Of a stretch of DNA of 64,000 bases, positions 1-23,449 are shown in pieces. The notes under the pieces are model-generated. The model was not told where the DNA came from. It saw nothing but the letters and a program-made list of their open reading frames with translations, and did no database searches. This DNA is from Trichoplax sp. H2 (Eukaryota): the NCBI GenBank assembly GCA_003344405.1, contig NOWV01000128.1:62001-126000 (forward strand), given 5' to 3'. The translations under genes were made by a program, and so were the position numbers. Every line of letters begins with the position of its first letter. The stretch's first letter is position 1.

Positions 1-3000
1 TGGAAATTGCATTACGAAGATACGACCATCTTCCAAAGCCTAATTTATTTTATGTTTACACAATTTACACAGTTATCATCGATGACAATAATTATCCAAG
101 GAAGCTCAATTATCACTACAATAACAGTAACATGATAAATAACTTTCTTACTTGATTTACAGTATTACCAAATGTTTGCGAATTCAATTTGGACTCAATT
201 GCATTCTTCCAACCAAAATCAGGATTTAAGAAAGGTTTTAACTCAGAAACCTTAGTACCATCGAAAATAGCATCTAAGTAGGACCAAATGTTTATTAAAA
301 AATTTAGTGCTGTAAAGAAATTGAGGCATAAATTTTTACTGCTATGGTTTTGTAACCTAACTTCGTATACTTGCATATCTGTGTTACGGTTTGAGCATTA
401 TTAAAAGGAAATATTAAGAGATATCCATGTATGAAAGATGTAGTACGGTATATCTTACAAGTATTATTCGCTCCGTGTGGCTCTATCAAGTATATTGTAC
501 AGGGTATATCAAAATGGAATTATTTATTTCTGTCTTACCTCTCTGACAAACAACTTTCCAGACAGGCTTAAAGCAGCTAGTATAAAACAAGCGCAAGCCA
601 TATCGCGAAAAACGAGCTGATAAGCACTTTCGGAAGTAGCTTGGTGTGTTGTAAGAATTTTCAACGGTAGTACCATCCAGCCACTTACCATATTTTGCTC
701 CCACATAGACACGTGAGTACCATGTTTTGAAGTACTTATTAACAAGTTTAGCTTCCGTAGGATCCGACAATATTGGTAAACGGCCATGATTACATTTGCA
801 CTTATATTGAGCAATATGCCAGTTTGTGTAATGATATGGACGAAAGGCTTTATAGCAATGTTTACCAATTAATTTCCAACCCTGTGGACAAGCTACATGT
901 ACATACAAGATTTAATATTTTGGTTGCTTAATTCAAGTTACCATTACCGGTAATTAAGATCTGATTAGCAGATCGGGTAATTTTGGAGAACGTGTTATTA
1001 TTAACAAATTACTCATAAATAATGTGATTAAAGCTACTTCAACTTACATGATTTGAAAACTCTGGATAGCTGCAAGGGATGTAATCCTGCCAAACGCTGC
1101 TCTGCAAAGACTTTATCATCCGAGAAATTATCAATGATTAGATCACTAGGCATCGTGAGTTGATTTCCTAGTGCCTAAAGTAATGAATTTACAAAGCATG
1201 AATAGGTTTAGCTAAGTTTGCTATCAGTAAAAATTTCTTGATTGATAGTATGCTCTTAAAATAATTACATAGTATATGATTATACTAAAATATAGCATCC
1301 TATCAAAGTCGCTAAATCCAATTAGCTGACTTATCCATTTTTACCAATAAATTTCGTGGTGCAGCTAATTACGATCACTGCATAAACTTATTTTAGCATG
1401 ATAAATTATAACTCAGTATTATAGCAGTATACCATTGTATGTAATTATGACTAAGTCTAATAGTATCAGAACTAATATCTATGTTGTTTCTTTATCTTTG
1501 CTTGCATTCAATTCACATTATATGATGCTTATGTACTTTATATTTCTGCATTGCATTTGTACTATCCTTCACATAGGTTGCACTCTACTGTTGATTAGTA
1601 TAACAGTAACTCACATTCCCAAATTACAGTTTGAGACTCAAAATTCTTTGAGTTTACCATTAATTCATTACAGCCTGTCATCAATTGATTTCAAGATTTC
1701 AATCTTAGCTGTATACTAACTTAGATGAATTTAATCAACAAAAAAATAAAATTAAAATTAAATTAATAGCCTGATCGACACTCGAGGGCTTAGCCACACC
1801 CGAGGTCATAATTCGAGGACAATTTAGTATGCTGATTATTTTGACGCATGCGTCCATTAAGCGGAAGGTATATTTCTTTTCACGATATAGTTCCGCAAAT
1901 TTTCCTTTCTAGATATTATTTGCCAGCCGGACTAGAGATTTCTCCGCCTTTACCACTCCCATCTATTATTTAAAACTAATATTGAATGCGATCTGCTTTT
2001 CTTTTTTTTTTGTCACTTAATGAACAGTAAAAAGGATACGTCCGCGCATTGCAATCGATCGCTTAAAAATTGCAGAGCTATAATCACCTGGAATGATTTC
2101 AGCTAATTATGGCACAGTTGCCATGTATAAGGAATAAAGTGATAGTATGCAATGTAGAACTGTACGTCTTAATAAAGTAACTATTGATTATAGCTCGTAT
2201 GATGAAATGGCTCACCTACCCATATGAGCTATGTAAGGTCGTAGCTGATAGCCATACTAAGTATTATTGCTATTTGAGCAATCTACTTTTAAGATTAATG
2301 ACTCCTATACATTATCTAGACGAGGTATAGAATTGACGGAAAGGAAAAATTGCTAAATAGTACTTAAATTAAATTCAGAAATTAAATTAATCAAATCATT
2401 CTTAGCAAAGTGTGCCAATATTTTTTTATTACTATATCATCATTCAAATTTTCTTGGTTATTGTACAATTCAGCTAATGACGAACGTCACTGATCGTAAC
2501 TAGTTGCTTAACCTATAATTTTTTTAGAAATATTTATTGAGTAGTGCTTATTTGCTGTTGCAAAGTATGGAGATGTCTTAAAAAGTCACGTAAAGAGTCA
2601 AAGGAGTAGGATGCAGCTGCCGTTAATATAGACAAAATTTCATTCCTCAAGGGATGTGTCCATTTCTGTGATGCTAAAGCTTATACCTATTCTAGATGTG
2701 CAAATTGGCAAAGACTGACTAAAAATACTATTAGTCATAGGTCGCTAATTGCTGTACAAATTTTTTGAGGGATCTTATTTTACATGGAGTGACTTTGCCC
2801 GTATGAGAATGCATGGATGCTAATAGTTTTTACTCTGTTAATATTTCATATCAACAAATACTTCCAATTATACTTTGCTATTAGCAATGCTGATATTGAT
2901 TTGTTGATACACGTAATTATTAACTAAGCATAATATGGCCTAGTGTTGGCTTAATATTTACTTTCATAAACATAAAATATCTCAAATGCTATGATAAGGG

Positions 3001-6000
3001 TGGAGGAAGTAAAAGGCGGATTCGGATATTGTCGGTGAAATTCTCAATTAAATACTTTGCACCTACTTCCCGTAGTACTGAGGCTTACATTCTTTTAGAG
3101 TACCATGTACCAAATTGAGTCTATATATATAATGCATGGTAGGAAGTGCAGTACACTCAATGAAGAAACTGTTAATGTTATACTTCATATAGTCAAGATG
3201 TTTGTATCATTATAATATCTTTACAATAAATAGTAAAATATCCTTTCGCGTTAAGTTTAACATAACTTAGATAAAACATTTGCTGCAAGTGAGGACTTGC
3301 AGTTATTGAAAGAAGACAATCAATGATTTATATAATTATTAATCTCATCTGAAATTCTGAGTCAGATACGCGAGTAAGATTAAATTTTAGAACGCTAACG
3401 TAATTATAAGCTAGTGCGTATATATATTTACGAAGAGAATTTTGTTAAGATCAAGGTTCAGTTCTATATCAAAAGCAATACAGTACATAAAGTGACTTAC
3501 CAACTGCGCATCGTAAAAGAAGGAAAATAACGCCTTGTAGTCTTCAATAACGGTAAAGTCTCGAAGAGAATTATTGCCAGTGGTAAGGAAAGTGGCCGCT
3601 AAATTAGCACTGTCCTGTAACGTGAATTGATACGAAAAAAACCATGGATTTTCCAATGGATCACTAAATGCAACACCGAATGCTGTGCCTGGATCGGCAT
3701 CCCATAGTGGTGGAATTAACACAGTTGGATCCCGCAGAGGATTATTAAAATCTGGTGTTTGACGTAATGCATATATAGTTTGACTTTGGGCTAGTTCAGT
3801 TTGACGATCCGCTAAACATGCTGCACTAACGAATTGTGGTATATCGACTGGACAAGTATGGTTACTACGAGGCAATCCAACCAATTTATGATCCTTTTTA
3901 GATTCGATAAGTAAATCAGCTGTTTATAATTGTAGAGATAAAGAGCTGTTATTAGATAAAAACACAGCAAATTGGTCTTTGATACGATATTAACCAATTC
4001 GGAGATTGTTAACATAATATATTGTTTAAGTACCGTGATGAGTATACAACGAATACGAATATCAACATATGATTAGCACAGCTCTATATATTCAATAGGT
4101 CTAGATAGGATAGAGCCATTTCTTCACTTTTTAATAGCATGATTGATTGTATAATCAGGGTCATTGCATAGTTACTGTAGTCACTTAAAATGAAACAATC
4201 AATTGGTTTTGCTATAGTCTGATACTATCTTAAACTTTATATTTATAAGGGTGAAACGTCAACATTGCATAGAGTTTACTTATCTTATTTTAAGCAAGCA
4301 AACGATATTTTAACGATACTGCCGAGTTAGCTCGACGATGGATAAAATGTAATAGACTTTGCAAATTTGATGTAATGATGTTTAGATAATTATCATACGC
4401 GCAAAGGAGAAGCCTTCTATTTTACTTCAATCAAAATAAACGCTTAAGAAATATAGCATAAAGCATATACATATGAATTTATATAAATGAATTTATATAT
4501 AATGGCCTGTAAAATCAATAATTATTAATATAAACACTGAAAAGGACAATAAAAATTAATTAAAGTAAACGCTGAAGTTTCTAACTGACCTATTGGTCTA
4601 TATTCTTGATCAGAAGAAGTCACATCACTTTTATTTTACAAGGATAATTTAAGAAATGAATTAGGTAACTAGCTCCAAGATCTATACATATAATAATTAA
4701 TCTGATAATTTGATAAATGGATTATTTAGTTAGGGACCAATCGTAGCATTGAGAATGAAATCGATTGATGATAACAAATAATTTATAGTCCATAATTTAT
4801 TATAAATCGTATGTAATCATTAAGAACTTCCGTATCGCGTATATTGTCTTTAATATTATTTTTACTGATTCTGTTTAGTGTTGCAATTGAGATAAATCAA
4901 GATTGTTACAAAATTATGGAGGAGTCATGATCAACGTGAATATTTTAAGTAATGCTATGATTAAACTACAAAATTATAGACAATAATCACTGCAATAAAT
5001 TATTCCATTGCCGAAGCCTTGTAAGGATATTTATAAATCAAGTACTATGATTGTATAGTTGGCCAATATGGCATTCTACTTACTATTATCTTGGCTTTTG
5101 AAGAATTGGCTGTTAAAGAAGCAATCTGAATAAATTCCAACGCATAAACATGTTTCTGGTAAGATGCAGAATTCACCTTTACCACAGCTCTGACGGCAAA
5201 CAGCTAAATAGATTGAAATTTTAGTTTTCTTAAATTTCTTGAATTAATACACATAAGGCGTTAAAATTTAGCGGTTTGGGAATTCTAAACTGTTAGCGAT
5301 GACAAAGACTACTACATGCGTAGTGATAATGGAATGCTTTAAATTATTGACTTTTATAATCGAGATTAAATCAACTATGAGTTTAATATTATCCAAATTT
5401 TTATGAATTGTTATAAGTGGCTTTTCTTTATACGATTAATCAGGTATAGAATGGACTGTAATGTACTGTACATTAAATGCTCTATCATAAAGCAATAAGG
5501 TCCGCACCAGCTGTGTTCATGGCATAATAATATAAAGGTTCAGTTTTCGATTAATTTAAATTTTCTACTAGATTAATTGCCAGTATGGTAACTGTTACAG
5601 AGTAAGTTAACTTTTCAAATAAGTTCACGTTTAATCCATGCTTCATATTCTATATAAGTCAAATAAATTATAGACAGCGCCATACAACTCCTTCACTATA
5701 GTTTTCTTGCACCGTTATCGTAACGTCTCTTATATTACTTTTTAATTTTACAACAACATTTTGCAACGGATCCCATAAATATTACATTGCAACTTAATAC
5801 TATAATGTCTGGCAATGCATATATAATACAGTAATTTACAGCAAATCGATCAACTACAACTATCCTGTATCATATAGTCGGTACCGGATAAAGTGCAATT
5901 ATGAGCTTGTGGCAATTTAAAGATCATAACGGTCACTTACAGAGTAAGATCATTACATGAGGTTAGCTAATTTATGAATAGTATCGTGTCTTTGAAAAAT

Positions 6001-6767
6001 TAACATATCGCATGCATTGCTATTCAAAGTGCATGAAATATCACTGCCTTGACATAATGACAAATATATTCTGTTTCTAAAACTACTTACGTGTAAAACA
6101 AGGATCTTCGCCATAAATTATTCCATTAGGCCTTGACCAACCCTCACAACATTGAGGATCTTTTTGATTTTTTATGCTTAAGTTCTTAATGATGCTATTT
6201 AGTCTTTGACCATCGCTGATTTAATTTTAAATGAGTAATTAAATAATCATAGGATACATAGGATCTGGCATAGTATCAAACTTAAAACACAGAAAAGATT
6301 TTTACCTCTCCACTTCGCAAACATTGTTATTGAGAAAGCCAGCGATGATACTTGCAATAAAAGGAACATAAATTATTACTTATTCCATATATCTAATCAA
6401 ACTGTCTATTTTTCTAAGGATATTTAAAAACTGATATAGAATTAGCAACAAGTTGTTCGTACATCATAAAATGCCCACAATTAAATAAATCAGCTGATCA
6501 CAATGATGTAACTAAATTTAACAACGTGATCTATGTAGAGATATAGATAGTGTGTTTCGTGTCTCTTTAGTTTTTAAGACGTGAAATGCAGTTTTTACTC
6601 GCTTTGGTTTAAATCTCCAATTATATCACTATAGAAATAGTATGAAATACTTTTTTTGCACCCTTCTTTTTGCTGTATAACTTCCCCTACCTTGTTAAAC
6701 GCTCGTATTGTGATGAGGGTAGTGGCAAGATGGCAAAGATGGCTATAAGAGCCAATACAGACTTCAT
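1..6767 (-). CDS. Secreted lipoxygenase paralog A: signal peptide, CCxGW/NIM-EGF head, LOX domain with inserted C-type lectin-like domain; 3' end runs off the window
   Basis: Frame-compatible GT-AG exons: 6767-6691 (MKSVLALIAIFAILPLPSSQYERLT), 6350-6306 (IIAGFLNNNVCEVE), 6215-6091 (QCCEGWSRPNGIIYGEDPCFT), 5203-5084 (PVCRQSCGKGEFCILPETCLCVGIY), 3919-3501 (TCPVDIPQ..RQTELAQSQTIY), 1174-1048 (DDKVFAEQRLAGLHPLQLSR, LOX motif), 892-539 (CTLD), 273-152, 39-1 (ALEDGRIFVMQFP). Near exon-for-exon homologous to the complete paralog at 14632-23449. Confidence 0.88.
539..892 (-). CDS. C-type lectin-like domain exon of LOX paralog A (354 nt, phase 1-1)
   Basis: CPQGWKLIGKHCY...A..KC...GRL...YVG...WLDGT...CL...SC....VVCQ pattern; tag acceptor at 893-894, gtaag donor at 537-538. 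Confidence 0.9.
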
Positions 6768-9700
6768 TTTGAGACAACGAAATGAATCTGATCGTTCACT
6801 GTGCAACCTAATCAATTCAACGTGAGAATTATTAAGAAGTATCAAGTTGTTTATCAGTTTTTGACAGCAATGATTAATCAGCCTTAATTATTTGTTAATA
6901 GTGCAATGGATTATGATGACAATGTGATTGACTTAAAACAATTAATAAACAATTATTCATCATTGTGCTCGACATCGCTTCAATGAACACTATGTTAATA
7001 TTGATTTAACTTTTCTACAATGCTATGAATTTTTCGATCTTATTTGATTCGCTGAAATTATTTTACTTGACTTTTTGTAACCAAAAGACCACTTTGAAGA
7101 AGATTTAGATGGTAAATCTTATAAGCATTAATAATATCAGGTTTAAATAATACTTTCTTAATAAATACGTAGCCTACAGGCAATACAGATGGCTAGACTG
7201 CTAGAATTTAAGATAGATAATTGAATCCATAATTTTTATATGCCTTACTTCAAGATTTCGTTTAATTATCATCACAATAAAATTATATAATAACATTTAC
7301 TATTATCAAAGATACATTTTCGGCTAGAGAATAAATAATGGAAAAGACTAGATTTAAGAAATTATTATTTATCAAAGTATGATTTACAGCCATTAAAAAT
7401 TATAAGCGCTAAAACATAACTACGTAAGATATGGTAATGCACATGGAGCATAAAAATTATAAAGAATTTTTGCCCCTATTCATAAAAATGAATATTTAAA
7501 TTAAGGGATCATTAAAGGATCCTTATATTGATAATTCATTATAATTAATTGGATTATTAGTTTTGTTTCACTAATTAATGAATGCTTTGCTAAATCACAA
7601 TTGTTACGGTAATAATGAAAAAACCGTTCGGGGGCAACTAAATGCGGCAGTTAATATTTAAAATAAGATGCATCGTCTATAAACATATTTTCGAAATTTG
7701 AAGGTTAGGATCCATTTATTTTCCTAAACTTAAAACAATAGAAACTATGATATTAAGTCACTAGGAGTGATTCTCTTGGAGCAAGCCAATGTGCTATCGT
7801 TTCCAAAATACTTCTGATAGTAAAAATACCTTAGTACGACTTTTTACAAACGATTCTAGAGGTATAAATTGGGGTATACTTTGGAGTGGGTATAGTCTGG
7901 GCTGTTACACAGGTTCTCATTTTTTAGCATCCTTTTATAATTGGTGATATTATAGTCATATCATGGTTTTATATTTTAGCTAAATATTTACAGCGGTTAA
8001 TTGAAGCTATAAAAGTATAGCTAAAGTAAAATTGTTGCAAGAATACAGATAATTTTATTAATTTAATCTAGCTTTCATTTTATGATCTATTCTTAGTGTA
8101 TGGTACTGTTTTGCATAAACGTTGTATAATGGAATAGTATCATAATAATTAGTATCACTACTACGTAGTTACTAATAAAGGAAACATTAGAGTCGTCTAA
8201 TGTTTTAGAGGAGAGCGAAATCATTGTACAGTAGATTATAGTTGACTTCTATTACCCCAAAATACTACCATATTAGTTGCGCTGCCAACAATTTCTAATA
8301 AATATTCAAACTTAACAAGATTTATTCATTTGCTAGATTTTTCGTTCTAATCAATAATTTTCAGAGCTCGATCAATTTAGCTAGCGCTAGAACCAGTTAT
8401 GTAGATAAATAAACGTGATTGGTGCTTTTAAGACTCTTGAGATAATATTTTGTAATAGATATCCTAAGATGATCTTATTCTATAATAGCCTAGTAGTGAC
8501 TAAGTCATGGTGTTATGATATATGAGCAGTATTAACTAAATATCATTCTGATACCATTACCTACTATATTTGCTTTTAAATATTAGTGGGCTAATAATTA
8601 TTTTATCAGGTAATTCATTCTGATAGAAAGACATTAAAGAGATTTCGTATAATGCTATTTATACAATGTAAAATTATAGATTATTGCATGTAACGATAGA
8701 AATAGATCTTAAAACGCAAAGCTTAATGGCATGAAGTTGGTTGATAATTTATTCCCAAATCTAATAAACTTTCATTCAATCCGTCATACCTTTACTTTAA
8801 TCACACTCTATTTTCTAGTTTTAATCACTCTGAATCATTTTTTAAAGCCTCCTTTTATTCCTTTATGCTTATGCTGAAATACATCTGAAGATATTGTTAC
8901 TGCTGAAATACTTTTTCTGTCCACGTAAAACGAAAGGCAGTAATTTTAATTAAACAATATCACAGATATCAATCTAATCTACGAGACGCTATAAAAATAT
9001 GAAGCTGTGAAGCTTACTCAAAATATGCTTTGACATCGAAGTAATATAACGCTAATTCTACATCTATCAATACATCTATCGATCATCACAAAACTTGACT
9101 AAACTACATTGCTTTTCCTAAAAGTTCCAATAATAGCTTATTTTTGAGTTTGTAGCGCCAAAATTTTCATCATTTATTTCTAAGAGAAAAAATTAAAAAG
9201 AAGTATCAATGCGTTGTATACAATAAAATATTTGCTTTTACCATGTTGTACTAGGACTTTCGTTAGCTAATTTAAAGGTTAAAGGTTAATATTTCATAAT
9301 GCTTGTAGTATTTTCATAATGATTTCAGATACTGATATGGAAAGACTGGTAAATTTCTTTTTTACATACCTTTCCCTATAATACGTATGATTAGCTCATT
9401 TTGGCGATGATAGTAAATAAAGCATAAAATTAAAGAATTATTGTATTTTATTCTTATATAGCTCTGATTCGATAAATGATATCATAGTGAATACAGATAA
9501 ATAATGAGCCTAGGATGGGTTTTGTAATTTTTAATTGAAGTATTGAGGGCAAAAAGTCAATATATCTAATGTTGACTAAGAGATATATGGCTACTAATTG
9601 TTTCTACGAGACAATGAAAATATTTCTTAAGTGCAAAGCTACATAAAATTGTCTGCGTATTCTGCCTTTAGTATTATATATTCAATATGAATGTGCTATG

Positions 9701-10640
9701 GGAATTGACCTTGGCCTCTAAACGATAAGATCAAGGACAATATTATAAAATTGTGAACGACAAACTGATATGCTATGTACGGTACCGAGATCTCGGAACA
9801 GTAGGAGTTAATTAGGTGCTTGCTTTGCTAGCCCCCATCAGGCAATGCTCGCTTGTTTTGTTCTTAATTCTATGACGGGATATTGACTAGATTGCTAGAA
9901 GAATTCTTTAATTTAATAGTCACTGAAAGTAGTTTGTTTACATAAAATTCAATAAATATTCTTGAGAGATTAAATGTTATACCAGGAGATCCTACGTTAA
10001 TGATTAATTAATTAATTAATTAATTATGAAAAAAATAAAGTTGTTGCTAAGTGTCACTAACCAGCTTCGTGACAAAGATAACGTAAAACAAATCTCTAAA
10101 TTACTCTAGTCTCCAGGATTCAGTATCCCTAAACTACCTCACAAGAATTTAGACGCCTTTGCTTCTACGTTAAAACAACTATATAAGTCTTCTTTTATGC
10201 AACTATCTGCCGAGCTTAACCCTTCGGCAGCAGCTATCATGTATGAGTCATAACGGTTCATGAAATTTAGCTCATATTGGATAGCTAAATTAATACAGAA
10301 ATTATTCATAATTTTGGACATGTACCGAACGATTCTAGATAATTAGACTACAGTATGTCCACACGCAGAATTATTTATAGTATCACCTATAATTGAATAT
10401 CTTCAGGATATTCATCATAAGCGTTACAAGACATAACGCTATAATCAATTACTATTGGTTACCTTATAAGAACTTTTACTACAATGCAGCATAATTTACT
10501 GTAACAAATAATAACTACCGCAGTTCTTACTGTAAGTCATCATTAGTTATCTCCATGTATGAATGTTAAACACTAAATTTAGTCATATACTTTTCACAGT
10601 GGCTCGTACCGTAACACTAAGATATTATGTTTGAACCATG

Positions 10641-11189
10641 TGTCACAATTTTACTTCTGCGACAAGGTAACGTACAGTAAAAGTCTATAAGTAGCTACTG
10701 ACTTAAACGCCCTTCTACCTAACTTTAAACACACACAGCAAAATACTGTAAAGATAAAACTTTTATTAGCAAAGACACATCTACAACTTTTTACTACCCC
10801 ACTCAACTCAAATGTTCCCGTTTATATAGGAAAAGTCTAATTTGTAAACAACAGTATTATTATTATACCTTACTAGGAGAAACATCTCGAAATGAGATGT
10901 TCGTTACATAGCTTTTCTATCAGTAAACATTTTGTATTTCTTACTCTTACTTAATCTTAATCTAAGCACGTAGGTTGTCTAATTCAACTATCATCAACTG
11001 GAACTTGAATCATCTTACTGCTATTTATCACACAATAACAATCAATAACAAATATGTAATGAACTATCACAAACAACATCCACGTTAAGGCATTACTTAT
11101 CTTACCTAGAACTACAAATATGGATATTCTCCGTACTAGCTACTACTGTACTTATTAAACTATCCCAATGACAAGGCAACACCGTAACA
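10641..11189 (-). mobile_element. Solo LTR (549 bp) with 5-bp target-site duplication
   Basis: Termini TGTCAC...GTAACA; CCATG on both sides (10636-10640 and 11190-11194); minus strand has TATATAAA (~10821-10828) followed ~60 nt later by AATAAA; homologous inverted copy at ~57285-57567. Confidence 0.8.
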
Positions 11190-14100
11190 CCATGTAAATA
11201 TTAGTGTTAACAAGGCATCTCGAGTAGTTGTATCAATTTGCAAGATACTAATATCATTTCTAGATGAATGCCCAATATCTTTTTACATCTTAATAGTTGA
11301 TGGATATCATAAAATTGAACGAAAGCCTTTCACATTATTACCAGTGCCATAGATAAATTCCAATTCTCTATTAATTACTATAAATTCACTTCTAGACTTA
11401 ATTATTTTCAAGCGCAGGCGACTTATGAGTTTCTGACATAAAATTCTAAACTTTTAAAAGATTAATAGTTTGAGAATATCGACAGTACGAAAAGTATTTC
11501 TTGATATTTCGGAAATAAGCTAATAGAACACCTGTTGCTAAGTAGTACAGTTATTCTTTTAAAATAATTGCTAATAAATTGCTTGATGTAATCTCTTATT
11601 TCAAACGTATATGTTACGGTCAGTGTATAAGCTATTATTGCCATGGAACGATTCATAACTCGACAAACTCCGATATAATTTGCTACTAGGTAGCAAATAA
11701 ATGGGCTGCATGAATAACCCGTCCGTAATACGTACTTGTTACGGTTCATCATTACCGTAAATAAAAAAAGAAATATTTATTCATATTTTTTCTAAAGAAG
11801 AGTTGTGATATGTTAAGTCGTTAATGGATTTCCATTAATGAATGTGTGATAAAGATTGTCACACTTGATTAATGAGTTATTAAGTAACATGTCTAGTTGA
11901 TTTGTTAACTGGAGTAAGAGTGGTAAACACTCAATATTAATTTACATATATCTATTCTATACTGACTGTCATAAATATATGTTACACAAAATCAAGTATA
12001 TTGTAAATAGAATTATGCTGATAGAAAATGGCATAGGTATATAAGAGCGTGCCTTTAATCATAGAAGGAGTTCTCTTATTACATTGCCTAGTAATATATG
12101 TTATCGTTCGAATAAAGAGGATTTATGAAGTTATCCGGATATACACACTGCTGAATAAGGTCTTATACTAAGCTGGTCGAGTTAGTGAAGCTTATTAGCA
12201 ACGGTATATTACGGTAGAGCGGTTACGTTAGGAATAAAATTAGTTACTTGTACCACAAACGACGTTACGACAGAACTATATATTGATAGTTTTTTTATTA
12301 CTCGTAAGTAAACAATTGAGCAGCCTAAAATTTGTCATGTAACAACTGTAAATTGCTAATAATAAGACACAACCAAGATTGGGAGAGAAAAGAGTTCGAA
12401 ATAGCCTGTTATTAATTCCGCGTCCGTTAGCTCAAGGAATTTAGCTTTTTTAATGAATAACTTAACATGGCAATGGAAGAGGCGAAAAGAATATATGCTT
12501 CTGTTTATTCATTTGCATATATAGCTATTTTTACCTATGTTCTTGTATTTATACAGCTCGTCAGGATTTCTATTTAGCATCTACTAGGATAAATACATAG
12601 AATTTGCTCTTTAACTTCTTAAGTTCACTTTACTATTCGTGGATTCGACTGCCACTTGATTGAAAGTTGTAAAGAATTTTGTTGATGTATTTACTGGGGC
12701 CTGATTGTGGCACAAAATATACCATTGTTTCGATGCTTAATAAGCAGCAGTCCTATTATTTCACTGTAGATCAATGTCTATATTCGACCAGAGAATTAAT
12801 GATAATTTACTTATATAATTAATCAAAATGGGGCAAAAATTTTTTCATGCACCGACACTGATGTCATGCAATAGAGCCTACAAATATGATGTACTGGTAT
12901 GACAGTATTCATTTTAGGAACTAGTTAGAGGTGATTGCATCCGCAAACAACTTCAGGCACTGAAATTCCACGGCCCATATACAGTATTGAATAGTTACTG
13001 GCCCTTAAAGGATGATACAGTAAATGATAACTTATAATTACGGCTTAAAAGATATGCACCACTTGCAGGAGGTATTAACTGAAATATCAGCTTACGCCCC
13101 TCTAGAATCATACAGGCACGTAATTTTCTCAGCATCTATCATTATCATTATTGATTTATTTATCTTGGCTAACTTTATGAATGGCTGAGTAAAGATTTTA
13201 AGTTTCGTCCTTTTGGACAACATTACTTGAAACAGCATTTTGTAGGACTATTTCTGGTAGTCATAAAAGTACACAGAATCCTGAATATTATATGCTCTTT
13301 ATATTTTATTTCATGCGAATTATCTTACTCAGTTAGGACAGGTATATATTTGTTTATGATATAGGTAAGGTTAGAGTCTGAATTTTTATTTAGGTACGTA
13401 GTATTCTCCATTATACTGCGGTATATAATGATTATTTTGCTAAATGAAATATCTAAAATTGACGGTAACATTCTCGTATAAGCGAGTAGCAAACAAGTAA
13501 ATTACAAGGATAAAGTTTTACTAAATATAATTTAATAAAACTAATGTCCTCAAGCTGCTATAAGAAAGAAATGGATACCTTTATTAGTATTAGAATATAT
13601 GGCATTAAAACTAGTCTATTTAATTGTCTCTCACTTTTAAACTAACGACAATTACCAGGTTTAGGACACTAAAGCAGATTTTGTCATTCCGATTGTGACT
13701 AGGAGGAGGTAAAACTAGTAAGATCCATGCTTTGACGTTTTAAGATAAAGATATCCATGACAAATCATATGTTATCGTATGAATTAAATTTTACCTTAGG
13801 AAAATCTAACATCTTAGCATAATAAATTATTAAATTAGGGATAGCGTCAATACGATATGGTGCTAAGTAACTGTCCATATAGGCAATTAAAATATATGCT
13901 TGTATTACGATACAAGGACCACAAGTTAATAAAATTACCAATTCGATGAGTGGAAGGAAAAAAATTTTACGGCGGACTAATTATACTTGAAGAAATGATG
14001 GCATTTACCAGTTAATACAGAAAGTGAAATTTTCTACGAAATAATTGGATGCGCACTATTCATACCCAACTAAATTTTGCAGTAATAGCGAATGAATAAA

Positions 14101-14631
14101 GAAAGAAACTCAATAAATATGAGCGTATCTGTTATAATATTAAGTACGGTAATTTTGCGTAATATATTAGAATTAGATCGATATGATGTTAATAATAAAT
14201 CCGTGTCTGGAGCAAAAAGGATGCCATACGGCAATTTAATAATTATTCTGTAATATCATAGTGAACTGGTAGATTACATCGCAAACGTAGAGCTATAATG
14301 CATAATACACTATCATTCTAAATTAGATAAGTCTATTTTAACCTTATATGATTTGATAATTTATGCTTAACTTAGATAGTTCCTACATTTTAATGAAGTA
14401 AATTAGCGAAGGTAGATAGTTAGTCTTATTACAAGAGTGGAAGCTTGTAGTTTTTTCTGAAATATCGCGGTCTATATTCTGTTACTTATTCATAAAGTAA
14501 ATAAGATGTAGCTTTAACTGATATGTGAATATAGCAACAATGCTACTGCTGATTTTAAATATGCCCGTACTATCGATGTTACAATGTAAAATTATGTTAT
14601 ATTGCTGTTAGAATCCATATCTGAAATGGTC

Positions 14632-17600
14632 TTAACTACTAATGCTATTTGGTACATTTTTTGGATGAAGGTACTTATAGCTCAAATGGCCATTGGCAAC
14701 ATTGGCGTTATTTCTAGCCACTAAATTAGCTTGAATGGTATCAATGCGAGCCTTGAATTCGAAGACCAACTCTTCAGCATCGCTATCTGCCATGCTAGCA
14801 GCATAATCGAACAAACTATCGAAATGTAATGAAGCCAAGTTGAAGCCAACTTCTACATGAGTCTAGGATAGAAGAAATAAATATTAGAGATAAATTTATT
14901 ATTGCGAAATATTAGTACTGGAAAGCTATTGAGGTAAAGTAAATGATGACCCTATAGTACTTTAGTTGTGGTTAATTATTATTATCTTGTTCAAGAATGT
15001 AGAGTGTTACTAATTATAATTGTAATTATCCTGAAAAATTTAGTATCAAACCTTGTACTATTGTTTACAGTTAAACTCATAAAATTTGAAATTTTGCCAA
15101 TATTGTTTGTCTACTAACGTCGCAGATTCTAATGATAAATGCTTATTGGATAATTATACTTACTAAAGATTGGGTCTTGGTTGGGAATTTTATTGGGTCA
15201 AATCCTGTTACACCGTCCACGTTATAAATTTTACCAGGCATATTAGGTAGAAAAGTGCCATATTCAATGACTGGAAAATTAACTGCTGCATGTTGGCAAG
15301 AAGAAGACCAAACGAATTTATGTAATACATCGATGACTTGAGCTTTTGTAGTGAAAGATTGAGGGAAGTCGCGTAACTACATATTTAAGCGAGACGATAC
15401 CAGTTTAAGTAAGTAAGTAATGATAACGAATTATAGTTTATTTGTAGTCTCTGAATACTATTAACATCAGTTCATATATTGCAATAAAGTTTAGCTTTAA
15501 AATACATAGCTCTAGGTGACTCAAAATGACACTGGATACAGTTATTACTCACTTTGCCTTTGCCTGAGTCTGGAGTACCTGTAGCACCTAAAGCAATTTC
15601 GTTTGCCCAACGTTGCATTTCATGATCGGCAACTACAGTTGCATCATCTACATAATATCTGAGAAAATTAATTTGTAAAATTAGAATCGAAGGTTATTGT
15701 ATTTGTTCCTCCAGGTCAGTTGTCTATTAAACTTACAGGTTAACGTAATCTCGTATAAAATCACCAATAGCTTTATATAATTCTAGCCCATCATCTCGGT
15801 AAGGAAAGAAAGGAAGTGCTTGCTTATCCAATAATCCAGATTTCTAACTCATGATAAATATAATATATAGCGACTTAAATTAGTATATACTACAAAACGT
15901 TGTACTCAATTAATGGTAGACTGTTCAGTGATTCGATAATACAAATTTTTATATCATTATAAACTAGATATTGCTGCTTAAGTGCCCAGAAGGTGATGCT
16001 TTTAACCAAAGCTAGCAGAATCGTTGTCTTACTAAGCAATTACTACAAGCAGCTTCAGTTATAATCCTATTTCTTAATATAACAGTTAGGTCAATTTTTT
16101 TTCGGTAGTGAACGATAAGTACTTCAATATTTTGCGTTTAATATATTGTAGCACAAAATTTATTTAACTCGTTAAATACTAGTTAAGCTCAAACCTTTAA
16201 TCGATAATTAGGGTCGTGATTATTAAATGACCAGGTATTAAATCCATTATTTATAACGTCATTTTGTCCCTTGAATCCAACAGTCAGGATTCTGTCCACT
16301 CTACCACCGAGTGGTATTAAGCTTAATTCGCCAACTTTATTCGTAGTCAATGTTCCTCTACAATGTTGGCGAATAAGTTGGCCCACAGGATGCGTTATTG
16401 GTATATTTCGTTTACCTGATACACATAAGGGATCGTTGACTAGATGAGTATGCAATAAATGTTCTAATAATTCAGCGGTAGTAAAAGCGGACATTTGAAC
16501 TAAAATTTTAGCAATGGTCCAGTTATCGCCATCATCTGGTGTATATACTGGCGAATTTTGAGTACTATTGATCTGAATAGCAACAGGCAAAAATTCTCCA
16601 TGGTTGACGTCCGGATTTGAAACAAAGATTGCAATTGGCGACATTAAAGTCATCATAGTTCTACCATCATTTGGTATTTCTTCAAAATCGGGGCTGGTTC
16701 TTATTCCTCTAAGCTCAGGAAATTCTGATACGTATACCCTACCATCTTGCACAGCCTTAAAAGTATAAAAAATAGCAAATTATATTTATGCGCAAGCATA
16801 CGATTGAGATTTAGATAGAACTGATAGGGAAATACAGTAATCTTTATTTACTTACATCAACAAAGGTATTACTATAATAAGGCGAATTAGAAGCCAGTTT
16901 GGATCGAATTGCTTTCTTCCACTTGAATGATGAGTTTAGAACGGATTTTAAGGTTGAGATCTTAACGCCATATAAATTAGCAGCTACAGATGATACATAA
17001 AAATATTAATAGAATCCAATCATGCTATCAAAAATCATTGAGAAATAGCATGATACCAAAATAGCCCTTATTTTTATATCAAGTAGTCACCTTTTTGACA
17101 TAATATTTTTCTCAAAGGCCAGAAACAGAAACTGTATCTTAATTTTAAGCCAGATTGAGTAAATCCAGCTGTTAAACATCGACGGAATGCACTAGGTTGA
17201 TTGCTGGCACCCACAACTGGAGTGCCATCGGGCCATGTACCGTTACCGCCGTCAACATAAACGGGGACAGAAGCAAATTTATATCGCTTATTTACTTTAG
17301 CGGCTTCCTGTGAATCCGATAGATCTGCTAGATGGCTGATATGGCATTCGCAGACATGTTTTGCAGCATTAAAATTGCTGTAAGGGTATCCACGGAACAT
17401 TCTATAGCAATTCTCTCCAATTAACGTCCATCCTCGTGGACAAGCTAAAGAAGAACAGACATTGCTTTAAAATTGATCGTGCTCAAGGCTAACTGAAAAT
17501 AATTGAAAGGCTAATATTATTGTAGTAAGGCCCAAACTATACTTTAAATGAAAATTCTACTAACTACCAATACTTTGGTTAATGTAAAGAATGTTTTTGG

Positions 17601-20600
17601 TTATATATCAGGCAGTATACCGAATCTATACAGTCACCTAAAGAAGATCAAGAAAGCATGATACTTACGCTTGCCGATAACGCGCTTCACGGGGAATGGA
17701 TTTAATCCGGCAATTTGCTGCTCTGCAAATACACGATCATCTTGCCACATATCAATAATTAAATCATTGATATTAGTTGGGACATTTCCTTGGTCCTACG
17801 TATGTGAGAAAAGCATTACAAGAATTGATTCTCAATCGATAGAAAACATTACAATCATTGTCTATTATCAAGTGAGAATGTCGTAAAGGTTCCCCATTTT
17901 AATACTGATATTAGAGATTACTTCTATACACTTACCACATGAAACATATAGAAGAAGAAAAATAATTCTCGCCAATCTGAAATACTAGAAAATTCCCGGA
18001 CAGAATTATTTCCTAGACTTAAGTAAGTCTGGACTAATTGTCCGTTGGTTCCCAATATAAAAAAGTATTGATTTAACCAAGGTGCTTCAAACGGGTCACT
18101 GGCTCCAACACCAAAAGCCGTTGGTGGATCGATGTCCCATAATGGAGTAAGTAATACATCTAAATCACGACCAGAGTCATTAAAATTAGGCGTAGTACGG
18201 ATTTTATAAATAACACGATTAGTAGCTAATTCTGTTTGGCGCTGGATGGTACAGTTGGGGCTAGCATTTTGCGGCAATGCTACTGGACAGGTTTGGCTAG
18301 TCGATCTTTTGCTATGTTGTTCAGCATCGCGATCGAATAAATTATTGTCAAAATTTTCTTCACTTCCAACGTCGATATCCGCTGCCCAACGTGTGAATTG
18401 ATCAAAAGGCGATCCTAAAGTTTCAATAAATTCAAGGAAAATTTTGCAGAATGAAAAGTTGATGCAATCCGTCTTGAATTATGATACTCTCTATCTGATC
18501 TAAAAATCATGATCTCTGCATCTATATCCGTTCGTTATAGTAAATGAAATATGACTGATATCGCCGCAATACTTAAATTAACAATTACTGACTTTTGTAC
18601 CTAACGTAGTCTAAATTTAGATAAGATGAATTATGGAAGCATCATACTAGAAAATAGTAGAGATGGAATATGAATTAAGAGTGCAAGTTACTTTTTTTTC
18701 CATTCGTCGCGTTATAAGTTGTTGATTGACATCCTCTATAGCCCAAGACGCATAAGCACTTATCTGGCTTATAACAAGATTCCTTATTGCCACAGGGTAC
18801 CTTGCAAGTTGCTAATTATAGAATAAATGAATCAATAAATGACTAATGAATTGAGCACATTATTTTAGAATCATTAAGCAAGTAAATTTCAAGCTATTGA
18901 GATTTTTGATCGCAAAACTGAGACTAGAAATAGTCCTACGCAAACAAAAATGGTGGAAAGGATTGAATCATGAGTGTTAAAAGTTGAGGTAGATTATATT
19001 ACAGTTACGCTTAATTAGACGAAATTACACATAAATCATCTATTTTATCATAAATACCATAGCTTACAGAAAAAAAGGAGATCGCAATCAATACGATACA
19101 GAAATTTAACGCTGCACAAGATTGTCTATTTTAAGGCTACGCTTTTGATTGGTAATTGAATTTTAGAAGTACAAAAATTTTGCACTATTGAGACTGAAAT
19201 TCACTGCAGAGTTTAGTCATCTATTTTCTTCCGGATTATTGTACAAAGTGTGAGCACCGCATACTATTGCACTTACGAATAAAGCAAGGTGCATTTCCTT
19301 CTCGATTACCGCCGGCCCTTGTCCAGCCATCGCAGCATCGAAATTTTGTAGCCCTAGCAATATAGTCTTCCTCATCAAAGAATCGGTCGCTGATGCTATG
19401 GTAAGCTCGCCTAAAATAAATTTTCAAAGTATGACATTTATATTACTTTCTATTATTAATTCAATGCCAATCAATATCACGAATTTCGCGTATTATTTCC
19501 CACTCCACTAAAAGTAATTATAAATACTTGGCAAACTGTAAGCTTAAATAAATCTCGATATCAGGATTAAGCTCAGCCTATATGTACTATAGAATGGAAG
19601 TTTAAACTCTGAGATATTATCGAAGGTATTCAATACTAAATCATATCTGTGTCATGATAAAGGTAAGAATAAGTTGGCCAATTTTTCACAGGATCCTATT
19701 ACAACATACGATTTGACTTTTGCTAAGTGTAATATTATAATTAGCATGTTACTCACACTGTAACGCTGTAATATTTATTTCTTCTTAGTCTAAACTGTAA
19801 TTATTGTAGTGGTTATCTACCTAAAACTGAACTTACTGCTTGAGCTCATTTCAGTAAATGATCACTTTTGTTTCACTAATGATCAATACTACCACAGTTA
19901 TTACCGCATTTATTGCTACCGCTTATCGATGTCTAATCTTAATTACACCGGAAGCTGTCCAGTTTACTACTGTCATTTAAACTAGATACATCTAACTTTG
20001 CAAAATCTGCGATCCAATTTACTGATTAACCTGCCAATAGAATTTATTTTAATCATGATTGATTATATGCTAGAATAAGATATTTTACAATATCATCAGT
20101 ACTATACCACTGTGCAATCAACTCTTGCGGCAATTTTAGCCCCTTTTCTATACAGATAAAAGTAAATAATTTGGAATGGTGGTTTACCAGTTTGACGCCC
20201 ATGTTAATAAATTTAGTTTAGCCAGCATACAATGGAATTATTTACATGGATAGTGTAATACGTTAAATTTTAGGTAATGCATGCACATATTTAGTGAATT
20301 TTATGGCATTTACCGGTATTAATGCATGTTGTAAACTAATTACGATCGATAATAATCGATACTAGTGCGGTATAATATCCGCATATGCTAGTTATAATTA
20401 GAATTATCCATTAAATTGTTTTCAAATTTTAATAATACTAAGATCAATAACAGTAAATTATAATTATAAACTTTTATACGAAGAAAATCGAGAAGAACAT
20501 TAAAGCTAACATCAAAATGGTTGATAGCTTCAATTAAAAACTTACTTGGCAGTATAAGAGCAGACATTGACATTGACGGAACCACTACTATTAAGACAAT

Positions 20601-23449
20601 GAATAAATAGATGTTATTATTTAACATTTCCATCATCTATAAATAATAACTTTGTCTTCTATTTGTAATAGATCAATTTTAATTGATAAACTATAAATGA
20701 AAAATTATTCTTTGCGTCACCATTGAATTATTAAAATAGGCTATTTTACGATGAAGTTGAGAAAAACAGTCGCTTATAAAAGCCTAACAAATCTGATAAC
20801 AGTCACCAATTTTACAAATATACAGTATTCACAAAAAGATCGTTTGTAATTAACATTCAATATCATTATCTATTGCTAATGTGGAGCATTAGTAATCAAA
20901 TAGATAAATTCTACAGTATTGCTGTTATTTTGAACGGTGGTAATTACTTATTCCGGAAAGCAGAAATTATTTGGCCGATGTAACTAGTTATTTGCAAGTA
21001 TAAGTGGCGTTTTAGCTATTATTACTGAATAAATCCAGAATTTTCTTCTATGATGTGTAAATTAATTGGGCCAATGTAACAAGTTATTTGAAAATATTTA
21101 CTGTGATTTCACTCTTATGATAATATACTCGTAGGATCACTATTTTTCTTCCATGACAGGTAAATTAATTGGCCAATTGAACTGGTTATTATCCGCAATC
21201 CATATTACTTTTCAAATTATCGTGTTTTCCATTTTATTTTGCTGATACGTCCTTAATTAGCGGTTTTAAAATTTCAGCTGTATCATGACGCTGCAGCAAT
21301 TAAGTGAAAAATAATACACGGATTTAAGCTATGCTTTAATAATTTTAACCACTTTCTACAGTTGGCTTTAGTAGTAGTTTTAGAGTTCATTCCGCGTACT
21401 TGACGACTGATCTTGATTTGATTCATTACAATTTAATGTGTTCTAGAATAATACTTATGTATCATTTACTACAAATTGATGATAGTTATTATTTCGAAGT
21501 ATTGTTTGAAATAAATTATGAATAATGATCTTGTATCATTTAAAGTAATTGGATGATAACTGTTGTTCCAAATTGTTTTTTGAACGCGTTATACAATAAT
21601 AATTATGAATTATTGAAATCATAAATGCAATGACTGTTGTTTCCAAATATTGTTTATGCACATTAGGGAAAAATGAAGATAACGGTATAGACAATCATAA
21701 CATTCTATGCATAATCTAAATTTAGTTATAATTATTCTCGCATCGCGGTAAATGATGGAGTAAGTTAAAAATAATCTTAATAGATTAATATGAATCGACA
21801 ATATATGGAAATATTATGTTATGAATAAATAATGTTAATTTGTTTCCATGATTTATAAAGGTGTTGTGATTTCAGCTAATTATAGTATTATTGTGTTTTG
21901 AAAATGTAATATCGATATGTAGTAATCACTATGTAGTAGAGAATAATCGTTTATGCTTAATAAAGTAATTGTGGATGATAGGGGTTAAAACCATTCATTA
22001 AAGAAATTAAAGTAATTCTAGATGACAGGGTTAAAACCTTTCATTACAGAAAATTTTATTGTTATAACTTATGCTCAATGTAATTTCAATTTAAAATAAT
22101 GTACTGGTAATTCGATGATATCTAGAAATACCTTGGTGGGACGTAATAAATCCAAATCGATAGCACCGATTCAAGCTAAGGATAGCAAAAATCTCTGAAC
22201 TAATAAATTAAGTAAACTTTTCGACTATGTCTAATTTGCACAAAATAATTTGCATTAAAAGTTTTAATTGCGATCGATAGATAAAACATTTATCTTTCGA
22301 TTTCTCTTCTCTGGTCGGAGTTATTACTTTGAGCTTTTGATCATTACATAAGATCAATTAGTTCACAATTAGAATGTGATATTTATTATCATTAATTACT
22401 CATAAGAATTGGTTTTAATCACAAATGATCTCAATTAAAAAAAATTTACTGGTCTATATTAGTCCAGTTTGACATGATTGTCATTTGCAAAAAAGTTATC
22501 TAGTAGTGATTTAAAATCTTATTTATTGCCTTCAGACTCAAGTTGGCTTTGATCAAGTACGATACCTATCTAATCAGACTTGATATAATCTGGCTTTTTA
22601 GACATTAAATGATATTAATTGGATGCATTTTGCTATCATTTCCTTATCTGGTATGAAATATCCAATTACAACTTCTACTATATTTAGTGGGCAAATAAAA
22701 AAAGGGTAGTTCCGTATGCTATCCATATCAATACCTAGCTATAACTTCTACCTTTTTAGCTATCAATAAAGCTATTTATATTCGATTTATTCACTGGCCT
22801 AATAAAAAATAGGATAATTCTGTATGCTATCCTTGACAGTAGCTAAATATAAATTAGATGATTATTATATAATCGAGAGGCCAATTATACGCTGCTTTGA
22901 TTTCATTTTGAAGACTACCTCATTTCTGTTTTATTGTCTGCTTTTACCAACAAAATTATCTTTTAGCCATAATATAGTCATCTTTCAATAACAGTTACTG
23001 TTATTTGGAACTGTGTTAACTTTAAAATTACCTTTTGTGTAAAAATTGGTTAGTTAAGAAGGTATAAAAATAGGATAGCATCTTAAATGCTATCGCTAGT
23101 TGTTATCATCGTGATAATTTCTAATCAAACTTTCATCCAGATTCGAGTTCTTTTTATTTGCTGTTATTTTCCTACTAATTTCTGCTTTCGTTATAATATT
23201 AAGGTGCAATTTTAAAATAAACTAGACCACAATTTTGCTTTGGTGTTAACCACAGCTTCGTGTATTAAGTGATTAGACTAAAGACGCTTCTAAAATGGGG
23301 CTATTAACCTGGCTACAACAAATAAGAACAATCATACTAATATAACTAGATCGATCTTTCTAAGTAGACAATTTGATACTGTATAGTAGACTTTACCTTT
23401 GGGAAGCAGTGGCTAAGGCTACTAAGAGTAGAAAGTATCCAAGATTCAT
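14632..23449 (-). CDS. Secreted lipoxygenase paralog B, complete (~870 aa): signal peptide, CCxGW/NIM-EGF head, acidic spacer, LOX domain with inserted C-type lectin-like domain
   Basis: Exons 23449-23397 (MNLGYFLLLVALATASQ), 19410-19277 (RCCDGW..PCFI), 18811-18692 (PTCKVPCGNKESCYKPDKCLCVLGY), 18414-17936, 17795-17669 (WQDDRVFAEQQIAGLNP), 17444-17091 (CTLD), 16983-16856, 16755-16195 (PVAIQ, WTIAK, HLLHTHL, HPV), 15843-15737 (PYRDDG), 15658-15553, 15376-15164 (QHAAVNF), 14862-14632 (YLHPKNVPNSISS*). All phases are compatible (2613 nt). His/His/His/Asn iron ligands are present. Confidence 0.92.
17091..17444 (-). CDS. C-type lectin-like domain exon of LOX paralog B (354 nt, phase 1-1)
   Basis: CPRGWTLIGENCY...AAKHVC...HLA...WPDGT...CL...FC....ILCQ; same length and phase as paralog A. 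Confidence 0.9.
20940..21195. repeat. Degenerate ~100-bp tandem repeat (3 copies) in intron 1 of LOX B
   Basis: Recurring ttggcc(g/a)a(t)tg(t)aac..gttatt at ~20971, ~21067 and ~21169. Confidence 0.45.
21961..22055. repeat. ~47-bp tandem duplication
   Basis: taaagtaatt..gatga.agggttaaaacc.ttcatta.agaaa occurs twice. Confidence 0.7.

Follow-up and report, generated by a model that had tools for sequence, protein, structure and literature searches.

The stretch analysed here (the window) comprises 64,000 nucleotides (nt) of Trichoplax sp. H2 DNA, namely positions 62,001 to 126,000 of the forward strand of contig NOWV01000128.1 (assembly GCA_003344405.1). The DNA is AT-rich, with a GC content of 0.28–0.42. 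Its minus strand carries a split lipoxygenase (LOX) gene, called paralog 1 here, and a second LOX gene, paralog 2, which is cut by the window edge. In both genes, a 354-nt exon predicted to encode a whole C-type lectin-like domain (CTLD) lies between exons of the LOX catalytic domain. To map the exons of paralog 1, the annotated protein P0003 was walked along the window with splicing, and 13 exons reproduced it exactly. P0003 is the 884-residue Trichoplax sp. H2 protein RDD39626.1, to which the translation of the largest LOX exon is 100% identical. The T. adhaerens (H1) ortholog TRIADDRAFT_60389, also of 884 residues, is in the same 90% cluster as RDD39626.1 and differs from it at 2 of 884 positions. 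Both differences fall in the exon just after the CTLD insert, and the CTLD itself has no amino-acid difference between the H2 and H1 orthologs. Paralogs 1 and 2 are much further apart, about 47–55% identical exon by exon in tblastn, with 47% for the CTLD and 52–55% for the flanking LOX exons.

The 117-residue translations of the two 354-nt exons share 55 invariant columns out of 117, and all seven Cys are co-positioned (positions 1, 12, 31, 33, 89, 106 and 115 in both copies). The exon bounds match the bounds of the domain, the first Cys being encoded by codon 2 and the last lying three residues before the exon end. Both domains are therefore held on single exons that have phase 1 at both ends and that coincide with the domain, as is characteristic of a class 1-1 shuffled module. 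When a profile of the two copies was searched against the PDB, 23 matches were obtained at E<=0.01, all 23 of them CTLD proteins by name (best E 3.2e-8), and KLRG1 was aligned over positions 1–115 of 117. The single-sequence search returned NKG2-D (E 9.9e-5), EMS16 B (2.3e-4) and KLRG1 (5.7e-4). In a protein-language-model search (Atlas), 28 of the 30 feature matches to the insert were Lectin_C clusters. Long-form CTLDs have a framework of six Cys, consisting of an N-terminal hairpin pair and two core disulfides. Both Trichoplax copies contain this framework plus one extra Cys at position 33. In the alignments, Cys1, Cys12 and Cys31 of the insert match Cys of solved CTLDs, with Cys31 replacing the canonical helix-1 Cys. 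Judged from these sequence comparisons, the exon product is a real but divergent CTLD of the natural killer (NK)-receptor and snake-venom kind, with one extra conserved Cys.

The CTLD interrupts a LOX segment that is contiguous in other enzymes. On the Pfam Lipoxygenase profile (PF00305), the exon upstream of the insert matches positions 189–213 and the large exon downstream matches positions 296–411, and the window exons alone score 50.9 and 29.6 bits. The closest relatives match P0003 on both sides of the insert and are nearly gapless themselves in the local phmmer tables. For the Pocillopora protein P0005, the match goes from 316 to 442 in the query and from 280 to 288 in the target, so that the flanks are 126 residues apart in the former and 8 in the latter. 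The loop was compared across an alignment (A2) of 120 sequences, consisting of P0003, its H1 ortholog, the H1 ortholog of paralog 2 (P0157, TRIADDRAFT_60387) and 117 of 139 search matches (at least 430 residues). Its length was counted between two anchors, the Pro of NP and the Gly of DGR, and four fragmentary rows were dropped. The three Trichoplax rows have loops of 174, 174 and 172 residues, versus 22–108 (median 38) in the 113 other LOXs and about 50–53 in the nearest cnidarian relatives. Taking away the 118 residues contributed by the exon would leave 56, by arithmetic. All 113 non-Trichoplax rows with both anchors are without the CTLD insert, and Lectin_C was found in none of the 75 search matches scanned with Pfam (the first 75 of 152 proteins). 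The module enters directly behind the strand following the AGxNP motif, ahead of the short helices that run up to the DGRxxV strand.

The sole outlier in loop length (108 residues) is the Montipora capricornis protein XP_068716666.1 (P0013). Its loop holds a fibronectin type II domain (Pfam fn2, 58.8 bits, residues 195–234; the insert spans about 186–236), which sits in the same alignment gap as the Trichoplax CTLD, between R-x-V-x-x-x and G-x-x-W. The LOX loop site is regarded as permissive because two unrelated extracellular modules occur at one point in two lineages. A conserved intron as the receiving site would fit with this coincidence. The variable length of the site, the coral module and the confidently modelled LOX fold on both flanks suggest that the insertion loop is at the protein surface. 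The source name of the Montipora protein, 'polyunsaturated fatty acid 5-lipoxygenase-like isoform X2', implies that another isoform exists.

Used as the query of a word-based homolog search, the whole protein found nothing but itself, and the CTLD profile found only the two Trichoplax/T. adhaerens clusters; both searches are word-limited and count as weak evidence. Two metagenome scans, with the CTLD profile and with a profile of the N-terminal LOX exon, found no relative. Among the best 150 matches of a representative search, which did not include the query's own cluster, the closest were P0023 (63% identical to P0003) and P0045 (57%), both of 159 residues. They are single-exon ENA fragments that stop short of the CTLD site, and a third paralog or a different placozoan lineage may be their source. 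P0045 reads through the same exon end as the Trichoplax gene.

These data agree with the anatomy given by the sequence-only reading. It had placed 354-nt, phase 1-1 exons at 17444-17091 and 892-539, and these coordinates, lengths and phases all hold. The spliced walk confirms its placement of the CTLD exon between the LOX exon ending ...AGLNPFPVKRVIGK and the exons leading to AVQDGRVYV. Its claim that one symmetric exon carries a complete CTLD is supported by the coincidence of exon and domain boundaries and by PDB matches that are all CTLDs, and the interruption of an otherwise contiguous LOX segment is borne out by the insert-less homologs for which it had asked.

The CTLD exon is transcribed and spliced together with its LOX neighbours. 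RNA evidence was taken from contigs of four runs from four studies, mapped on positions 1–20000 of the window. One of the four runs is RNA by record; the other three are RNA by guess, but their contigs are without introns. Such contigs drop minor variants, and their depths cannot rank genes. Among the 22 runs listed, several contained about 0.55–0.61 of the sampled words, which is near the exonic share of the stretch (0.59, by arithmetic). In paralog 1, the joints 16983 to 17091 and 17444 to 17669 were found in all four runs with CT..AC ends, equal to GT..AG on the gene strand, and contigs of 2813 and 2764 nt join the CTLD exon with the LOX exons on both sides. In paralog 2, the joint 273 to 539 was found in three of the four runs. 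A contig of run X5 has the pieces 539-892 and 1048-1173 back to back, and one contig has 151-273, 539-892, 1048-1173 and 3500-3919 in series. No joint that skips the CTLD exon (17669 to 16983 in paralog 1; 1048 to 273 in paralog 2) was present among the 15 joints listed, of 20 in the four runs, although rare skipping could escape contigs. The best reading of the contigs is that the CTLD exon is always spliced in. The sequence-only reading would have been contradicted by a lack of spliced reads containing the exon, and spliced contigs contain it in all four runs. It had also proposed lectin-plus and lectin-minus isoforms. Skipping does keep the frame, as it had noted, but the lectin-minus form is unsupported by the joints listed. 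A joint by which position 16550 goes back to position 1 (three runs) was rejected as biology. It is read as a mapping artefact, in which a paralog 2 contig that runs off the window was mapped on a short, near-identical patch of paralog 1 (16506-16550) that encodes the SPIAIFVSNPDVN segment common to P0003 and P0157.

Table 1. Exons and domains of the two LOX genes in the window (positions of the window; phases are given as start to end of the exon).
Feature	Position	Strand	Properties and basis
Paralog 1 exon 1, start codon and hydrophobic, signal-peptide-like N-terminus (MNLGYFLLLVALATASQ...)	23397..23449	-	Spliced walk; tblastn; hydrophobic run of 8-11 residues within the first 35
Paralog 1 exon 2	20546..20587	-	42 nt; spliced walk
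Paralog 1 Cys-rich EMI-like exon	19277..19410	-	CCDGW motif; phase 2 to 1; spliced walk; no family in Pfam
Paralog 1 EGF-like exon	18692..18811	-	120 nt; phase 1-1; spliced walk; weak EGF_PEAR1L match, E 0.041
Paralog 1 N-terminal helical LOX extension (TCPVALPQ... motif), without PLAT	17936..18414	-	Spliced walk; Pfam; model
Paralog 1 LOX exon ending ...FAEQQIAGLNPFPVKRVIGK	17669..17795	-	127 nt; phase 0 to 1; spliced walk; Pfam Lipoxygenase
Paralog 1 CTLD exon	17091..17444	-	354 nt; phase 1-1; 117 full codons; 7 Cys; acceptor CTTTAG, donor GTGACT; spliced walk, profile searches, RNA contigs
CTLD insert in P0003			Residues 320-437 of the protein
Paralog 1 LOX linker exon (AANLYGVKISTLKSVLNSSFKW...)	16856..16983	-	128 nt; phase 1 to 0; aligns with the cnidarian G-x-x-W..LNxxFxW segment
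Paralog 1 large LOX exon starting AVQDGRVYV	16195..16755	-	Contains His578 and His583; Pfam; conserved columns
Paralog 1 four C-terminal LOX exons (15843-15737, 15658-15553, 15376-15164, 14862-14635)	14635..15843	-	Contain His766 and Asn770
Paralog 1 stop codon	14632..14634	-	
Paralog 2 upstream exons: LOX extension 3919-3501, EGF-like 5203-5084 (120 nt), EMI-like 6215-6091	3501..6215	-	tblastn; RNA contigs
Paralog 2 LOX exon ending ...FAEQRLAGLHPLQLSRVFKS	1048..1174	-	127 nt; phase 0 to 1; joint 1173 to 3500, a cut one place further fits equally
Paralog 2 CTLD exon	539..892	-	354 nt; phase 1-1; acceptor ATGTAG, donor GTAAGA; sequence, RNA contigs
Paralog 2 LOX linker exon	152..273	-	122 nt; phase 1 to 0; joint 38 to 151, a cut one place further fits equally
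Paralog 2 large LOX exon, start (ALEDGRIFVMQFP...), cut by the window edge	1..39	-	tblastn

The exons outside the catalytic domain add further modules to the protein (Table 1). The joints 18413/18414 to 18691/18692 and 18811 to 19277 of paralog 1 were found in all four runs. Loose contig ends at 19410, also present in all four runs, encode NVNVCSYTAK of P0003 when reverse-complemented and read by eye, which fits a splice to exon 2, beyond the RNA-mapped stretch. The EGF-like exon has the same length in both paralogs, and in paralog 1 it has the same phases as the CTLD exon. At the other end of paralog 1, the open frame and the RNA contigs make the final exon a single one, and the protein terminates in ...PNSISS (14632-14640, minus strand). 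Directly downstream of the LOX stop, positions 13300-14620 form an unspliced transcript region, with a depth of 812 to over 12000 in run X7 versus 139 on the LOX exons. One contig has a loose T run before 13366, and no convincing open frame was seen in the region. It could be a long 3' untranslated region or a separate abundant minus-strand transcript. Another transcribed and spliced locus lies between the two LOX genes at 10000-11200 (contig depth 33–206 in four runs).

P0003 looks secreted, and a similar context is seen in its relatives. By a crude hydrophobicity reading, the N-terminal segment is hydrophobic in P0003 and in 15 of 16 close members of its family. Extracellular modules also occur in the relatives: Exaiptasia P0008 has EGF, P0033 has TSP1 and fn2 before the LOX domain, and Nematostella P0009 has a sub-threshold EMI match (18.4 bits versus a cut-off of 25). 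A PLAT domain was not found in P0003 by Pfam. Nor was a catalase-related allene oxide synthase domain, as Pfam gives only Lipoxygenase and a weak UL45/CTLD match, and the matches to PDB 3dy5 cover only its LOX part (residues 647–1063). The source product name, 'Allene oxide synthase-lipoxygenase protein', was therefore rejected, and is regarded as a best-hit transfer since Pfam finds no catalase-like domain.

The LOX part of paralog 1 is apparently intact, as far as sequence and model allow. P0003 scores 135.8 bits against PF00305 (cut-off 23.6). His578 and His583 (HxxxxH) together with His766 and Asn770 (HxxxN), which we take to be the metal ligands, stand in columns occupied by H in 118, H in 119, H in 119 and N in 116 of the 120 rows of A2. 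The AlphaFold2 model of P0003 has a predicted template modelling score (pTM) of 0.78. Its predicted local distance difference test score (pLDDT) is above 90 over most of residues 441–884 and 93–98 on both sides of the insert. The N-terminal extension is modelled as helices with a pLDDT of 90–98 for most of residues 161–290, and its consensus is common to the PLAT-less LOX rows of A2. In Foldseek, LOX structures were matched at a probability of 1.00, the best being Cyanothece LOX2 (5med) with a target-normalised TM-score of 0.83.

Taken together, the probable explanation of the locus as a whole, which we favour with some reserve, is a secreted-looking LOX with a nested domain, in which a shuffled CTLD serves as a targeting exosite. 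Its parts differ in strength. The anatomy and the origin given here for the nested CTLD are very probable. The layout would be a signal-peptide-like N-terminus, an EMI-like Cys-rich module, an EGF-like module and a PLAT-less LOX catalytic domain with the CTLD nested in it. The host would already have been a mosaic gene for an extracellular LOX when exon shuffling brought a class 1-1 extracellular module into one of its phase-1 introns. This insertion would have come before the tandem duplication, as the sequence-only reading had proposed in stating that it predates the duplication and has been retained. That order is supported and is the parsimonious one because site, length and phase are common to paralogs that are only 47–55% identical. 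The N- and C-terminal strands of the CTLD fold adjoin each other, so the domain could occupy a loop without breaking the host fold. The targeting function of the CTLD is a proposal that falls somewhat short of an even chance. As a binding exosite, the CTLD would anchor the secreted enzyme to a surface of protein, glycan or lipid, with prey or microbial membranes or the animal's own matrix as candidates. Such an exosite would stand in for the membrane-targeting PLAT domain, which is missing from this LOX lineage.

Several observations weigh against this explanation or parts of it. The Pfam Lectin_C (PF00059) scores are 17.4 bits for paralog 1 and 22.5 bits for paralog 2, both under the gathering score of 22.6 bits, and the precomputed Pfam lists of the public models P0003 and P0157 contain PF00305 only, with the CTLD not flagged. 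In the full-length AlphaFold2 model, the CTLD region has the order beta-beta-alpha-alpha-beta-beta-beta, but at a pLDDT of just 41–83, with three alignment rows covering the region. The CTLD predicted alone reached a pLDDT of 35.5, which was unusable and was discarded, so that the fold is unconfirmed by prediction. Sugar-binding C-type lectins use EPN or QPD together with WND for Ca2+ and sugar. None of the motifs EPN, QPD, WND and WIGL was found in either copy, which leaves sugar binding unsupported, and the insert was filed as lectin-like rather than as a lectin because the Ca2+/sugar motifs are missing in both copies. The secreted appearance is read from crude hydrophobicity and from the neighbouring modules, and the evidence for a receiving intron is confined to the Trichoplax genes. 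Two further points concern the active site. In LOXs, the carboxylate of the C-terminal Ile (or Val) binds the metal. P0003 ends in Ser; the last residue across the 120 rows of A2 is I in 70, V in 29, T in 9 and S in 4. Ser may still serve at this place, since it is the carboxylate that acts as ligand, and T or S is likewise the last residue of the nearest cnidarian relatives. In P0157, the second His (583 column) is replaced by Gln (EHLLKTQF), the only such case in the 120 rows; the corresponding part of paralog 2 is beyond the window. The paralog 2 copy may consequently not be a working iron LOX: its metal site may be altered or lost, or the gene model may be incomplete. The P0157 model has 550 residues, is without a stretch present in paralog 1 and ends in Val.

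These active-site changes are also what would be expected if the LOX domain were a dead scaffold, in an extracellular adhesion or matrix protein whose CTLD, EGF and EMI modules do the work. The Gln of P0157 and the absence of the usual C-terminal Ile in both genes (Ser in paralog 1, Val in the paralog 2 ortholog) speak for it. Paralog 1, however, retains all four ligand residues and a catalytic core modelled at a pLDDT above 90, and a C-terminal Ser or Thr is common to the cnidarian relatives (13 of 120 rows). For the locus as a whole, a dead scaffold is thus very improbable, and from the sequence of the H1 ortholog it is more plausible for paralog 2. A similarly slim chance, if anything slimmer, is given to the insert being a tolerated passenger, left by a neutral accident of exon shuffling in a permissive loop. 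Loop length varies from 22 to 108 across LOXs and a coral carries a different module there, as such an accident would allow. Against this, the exon is intact, of the same length and with all Cys kept in paralogs that are 47% identical in the CTLD, the CTLD has diverged no faster than the catalytic exons (47% versus 52–55% identity), and the exon is included in transcripts of both genes.

Two other roles leave the enzyme active and change what the CTLD does. It may be an oligomerisation or regulatory module that pairs enzymes, possibly through the seventh Cys, or gates the active site. The closest solved relatives of the insert are NK-receptor and snake-venom CTLDs, which act as dimers. The extra Cys33, beyond the six of the long form, is kept in both paralogs, and Cys31 takes the place of the canonical helix-1 Cys in the PDB alignments. 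The extra Cys might just as well remain unpaired or bond with another Cys of the protein, and we consider this role unlikely, though it is the alternative to which we give most weight. The exon could also be a regulated cassette, whose skipping (17669 to 16983; 1048 to 273) would give lectin-plus and lectin-minus enzymes with different targeting. It is symmetric, with phase 1-1, in both paralogs, and the 56-residue loop left by skipping is near the 50–53 residues of the closest cnidarian relatives. The paralog 1 donor is GTGACT, versus GTAAGT at 6 of the 13 tabulated donors (the last tabulated intron being spurious), and the coral fn2 protein is named an 'isoform X2' by its source. The contigs speak the other way, with inclusion in all four runs and no skip joint among those listed, which is weak evidence in contigs that drop minor variants. 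Regulated skipping appears improbable. The nested CTLD as a targeting exosite on a secreted-looking LOX remains the explanation preferred here.

Compared with known systems, the catalytic domain is that of coral 8R- and 11R-LOX (2fnq, 3fg1 and 3vf1) and other animal LOXs, which match residues 476–883 of the query at E 1e-49 to 3e-47, are matched in structure at a probability of 1.00 and have the AGxNP motif and the His/His/His/Asn columns in common with it. At the insert site, 3vf1 has 18 residues between the matched stretches (278 to 296), versus 154 in the Trichoplax query. Those animal enzymes carry an N-terminal PLAT/C2-like domain, whereas the Trichoplax protein is without PLAT and has a signal-peptide-like start, Cys-rich modules and a 117-residue CTLD. 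Coral and animal LOXs of this type are cytosolic. An N-terminal helical extension in place of PLAT is found in the bacterial enzymes CspLOX2 (5med) and PA-LOX (4g32), as in P0003. These enzymes differ in being single-domain proteins without animal modules, and are about 20% identical over the structural alignment. PA-LOX of Pseudomonas aeruginosa is described in the available part of PMC5764228 as secreted, as binding phospholipids and as oxidising the membrane lipids of red cells. Such an attack on membranes is the working mode proposed here for the Trichoplax enzyme. Montipora XP_068716666.1 belongs to the same PLAT-less cnidarian/placozoan group, and has a signal-peptide-like start and a whole module at the same site. 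Unlike the Trichoplax module, its module is an fn2 of about 50 residues and not a CTLD, which makes it an independent event.

Outside the LOX family, the gelatinases MMP-2 and MMP-9 have fibronectin type II modules inside their catalytic domain, where these act as substrate-binding exosites. The likeness is one of analogy and not of homology: in each case extracellular binding modules lie within a catalytic domain, but the gelatinases are zinc proteases rather than non-haem iron dioxygenases, and the module is different. The best sequence matches to the insert, KLRG1 (3ff7), NKG2-D (8tm0) and EMS16 B (1ukm), share with it the CPxGW...CY N-terminal hairpin and the W-x-DG segment. CTLDs of NK receptors and snake venoms are also without the EPN/QPD...WND Ca2+/sugar site. 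Those domains stand alone or at the tip of a stalk, whereas the Trichoplax CTLD, at low identity to them, is tied into an enzyme loop at both ends.

To our knowledge, LOXs are built as PLAT plus catalytic domain, as catalytic domain plus helical extension, or as allene oxide synthase fusions. In the literature searched, as listings and the beginnings of abstracts, no paper was found that dealt with placozoan LOXs, reported a lectin-like or FN2 domain nested in a LOX, or cited the accessions. In the available part of PMC13514124, lipoxygenase is named only when the abbreviation PLAT is expanded. The gene models are public. Enzyme and module are each known; their nested arrangement is new and bears a clear signature of exon shuffling. 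A layout in which the LOX catalytic domain encloses a folded binding domain would be new for the family. The locus is also a clean natural case of exon shuffling into an enzyme core, and a coral has independently acquired another module at this site. On the practical side, nature has already validated this loop as a place where a LOX tolerates an inserted domain.

More broadly, placozoans and cnidarians may have an unrecognised family of secreted, module-decorated LOXs. One catalytic loop, probably with a conserved phase-1 intron, would have repeatedly received modules, a CTLD in Trichoplax and fn2 in Montipora, as exosites directing lipid peroxidation towards targets outside the cell, prey or microbial membranes among them, for instance in the external digestion or surface defence of Trichoplax. 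This wider view is speculative, and we hold it to be doubtful as it stands. Judged from the signal-peptide-like start and from the EGF, EMI, TSP1 and FN2 modules, early-branching animals may carry out lipid peroxidation outside the cell, an activity of LOXs that has so far been linked mainly to a bacterial secreted enzyme.

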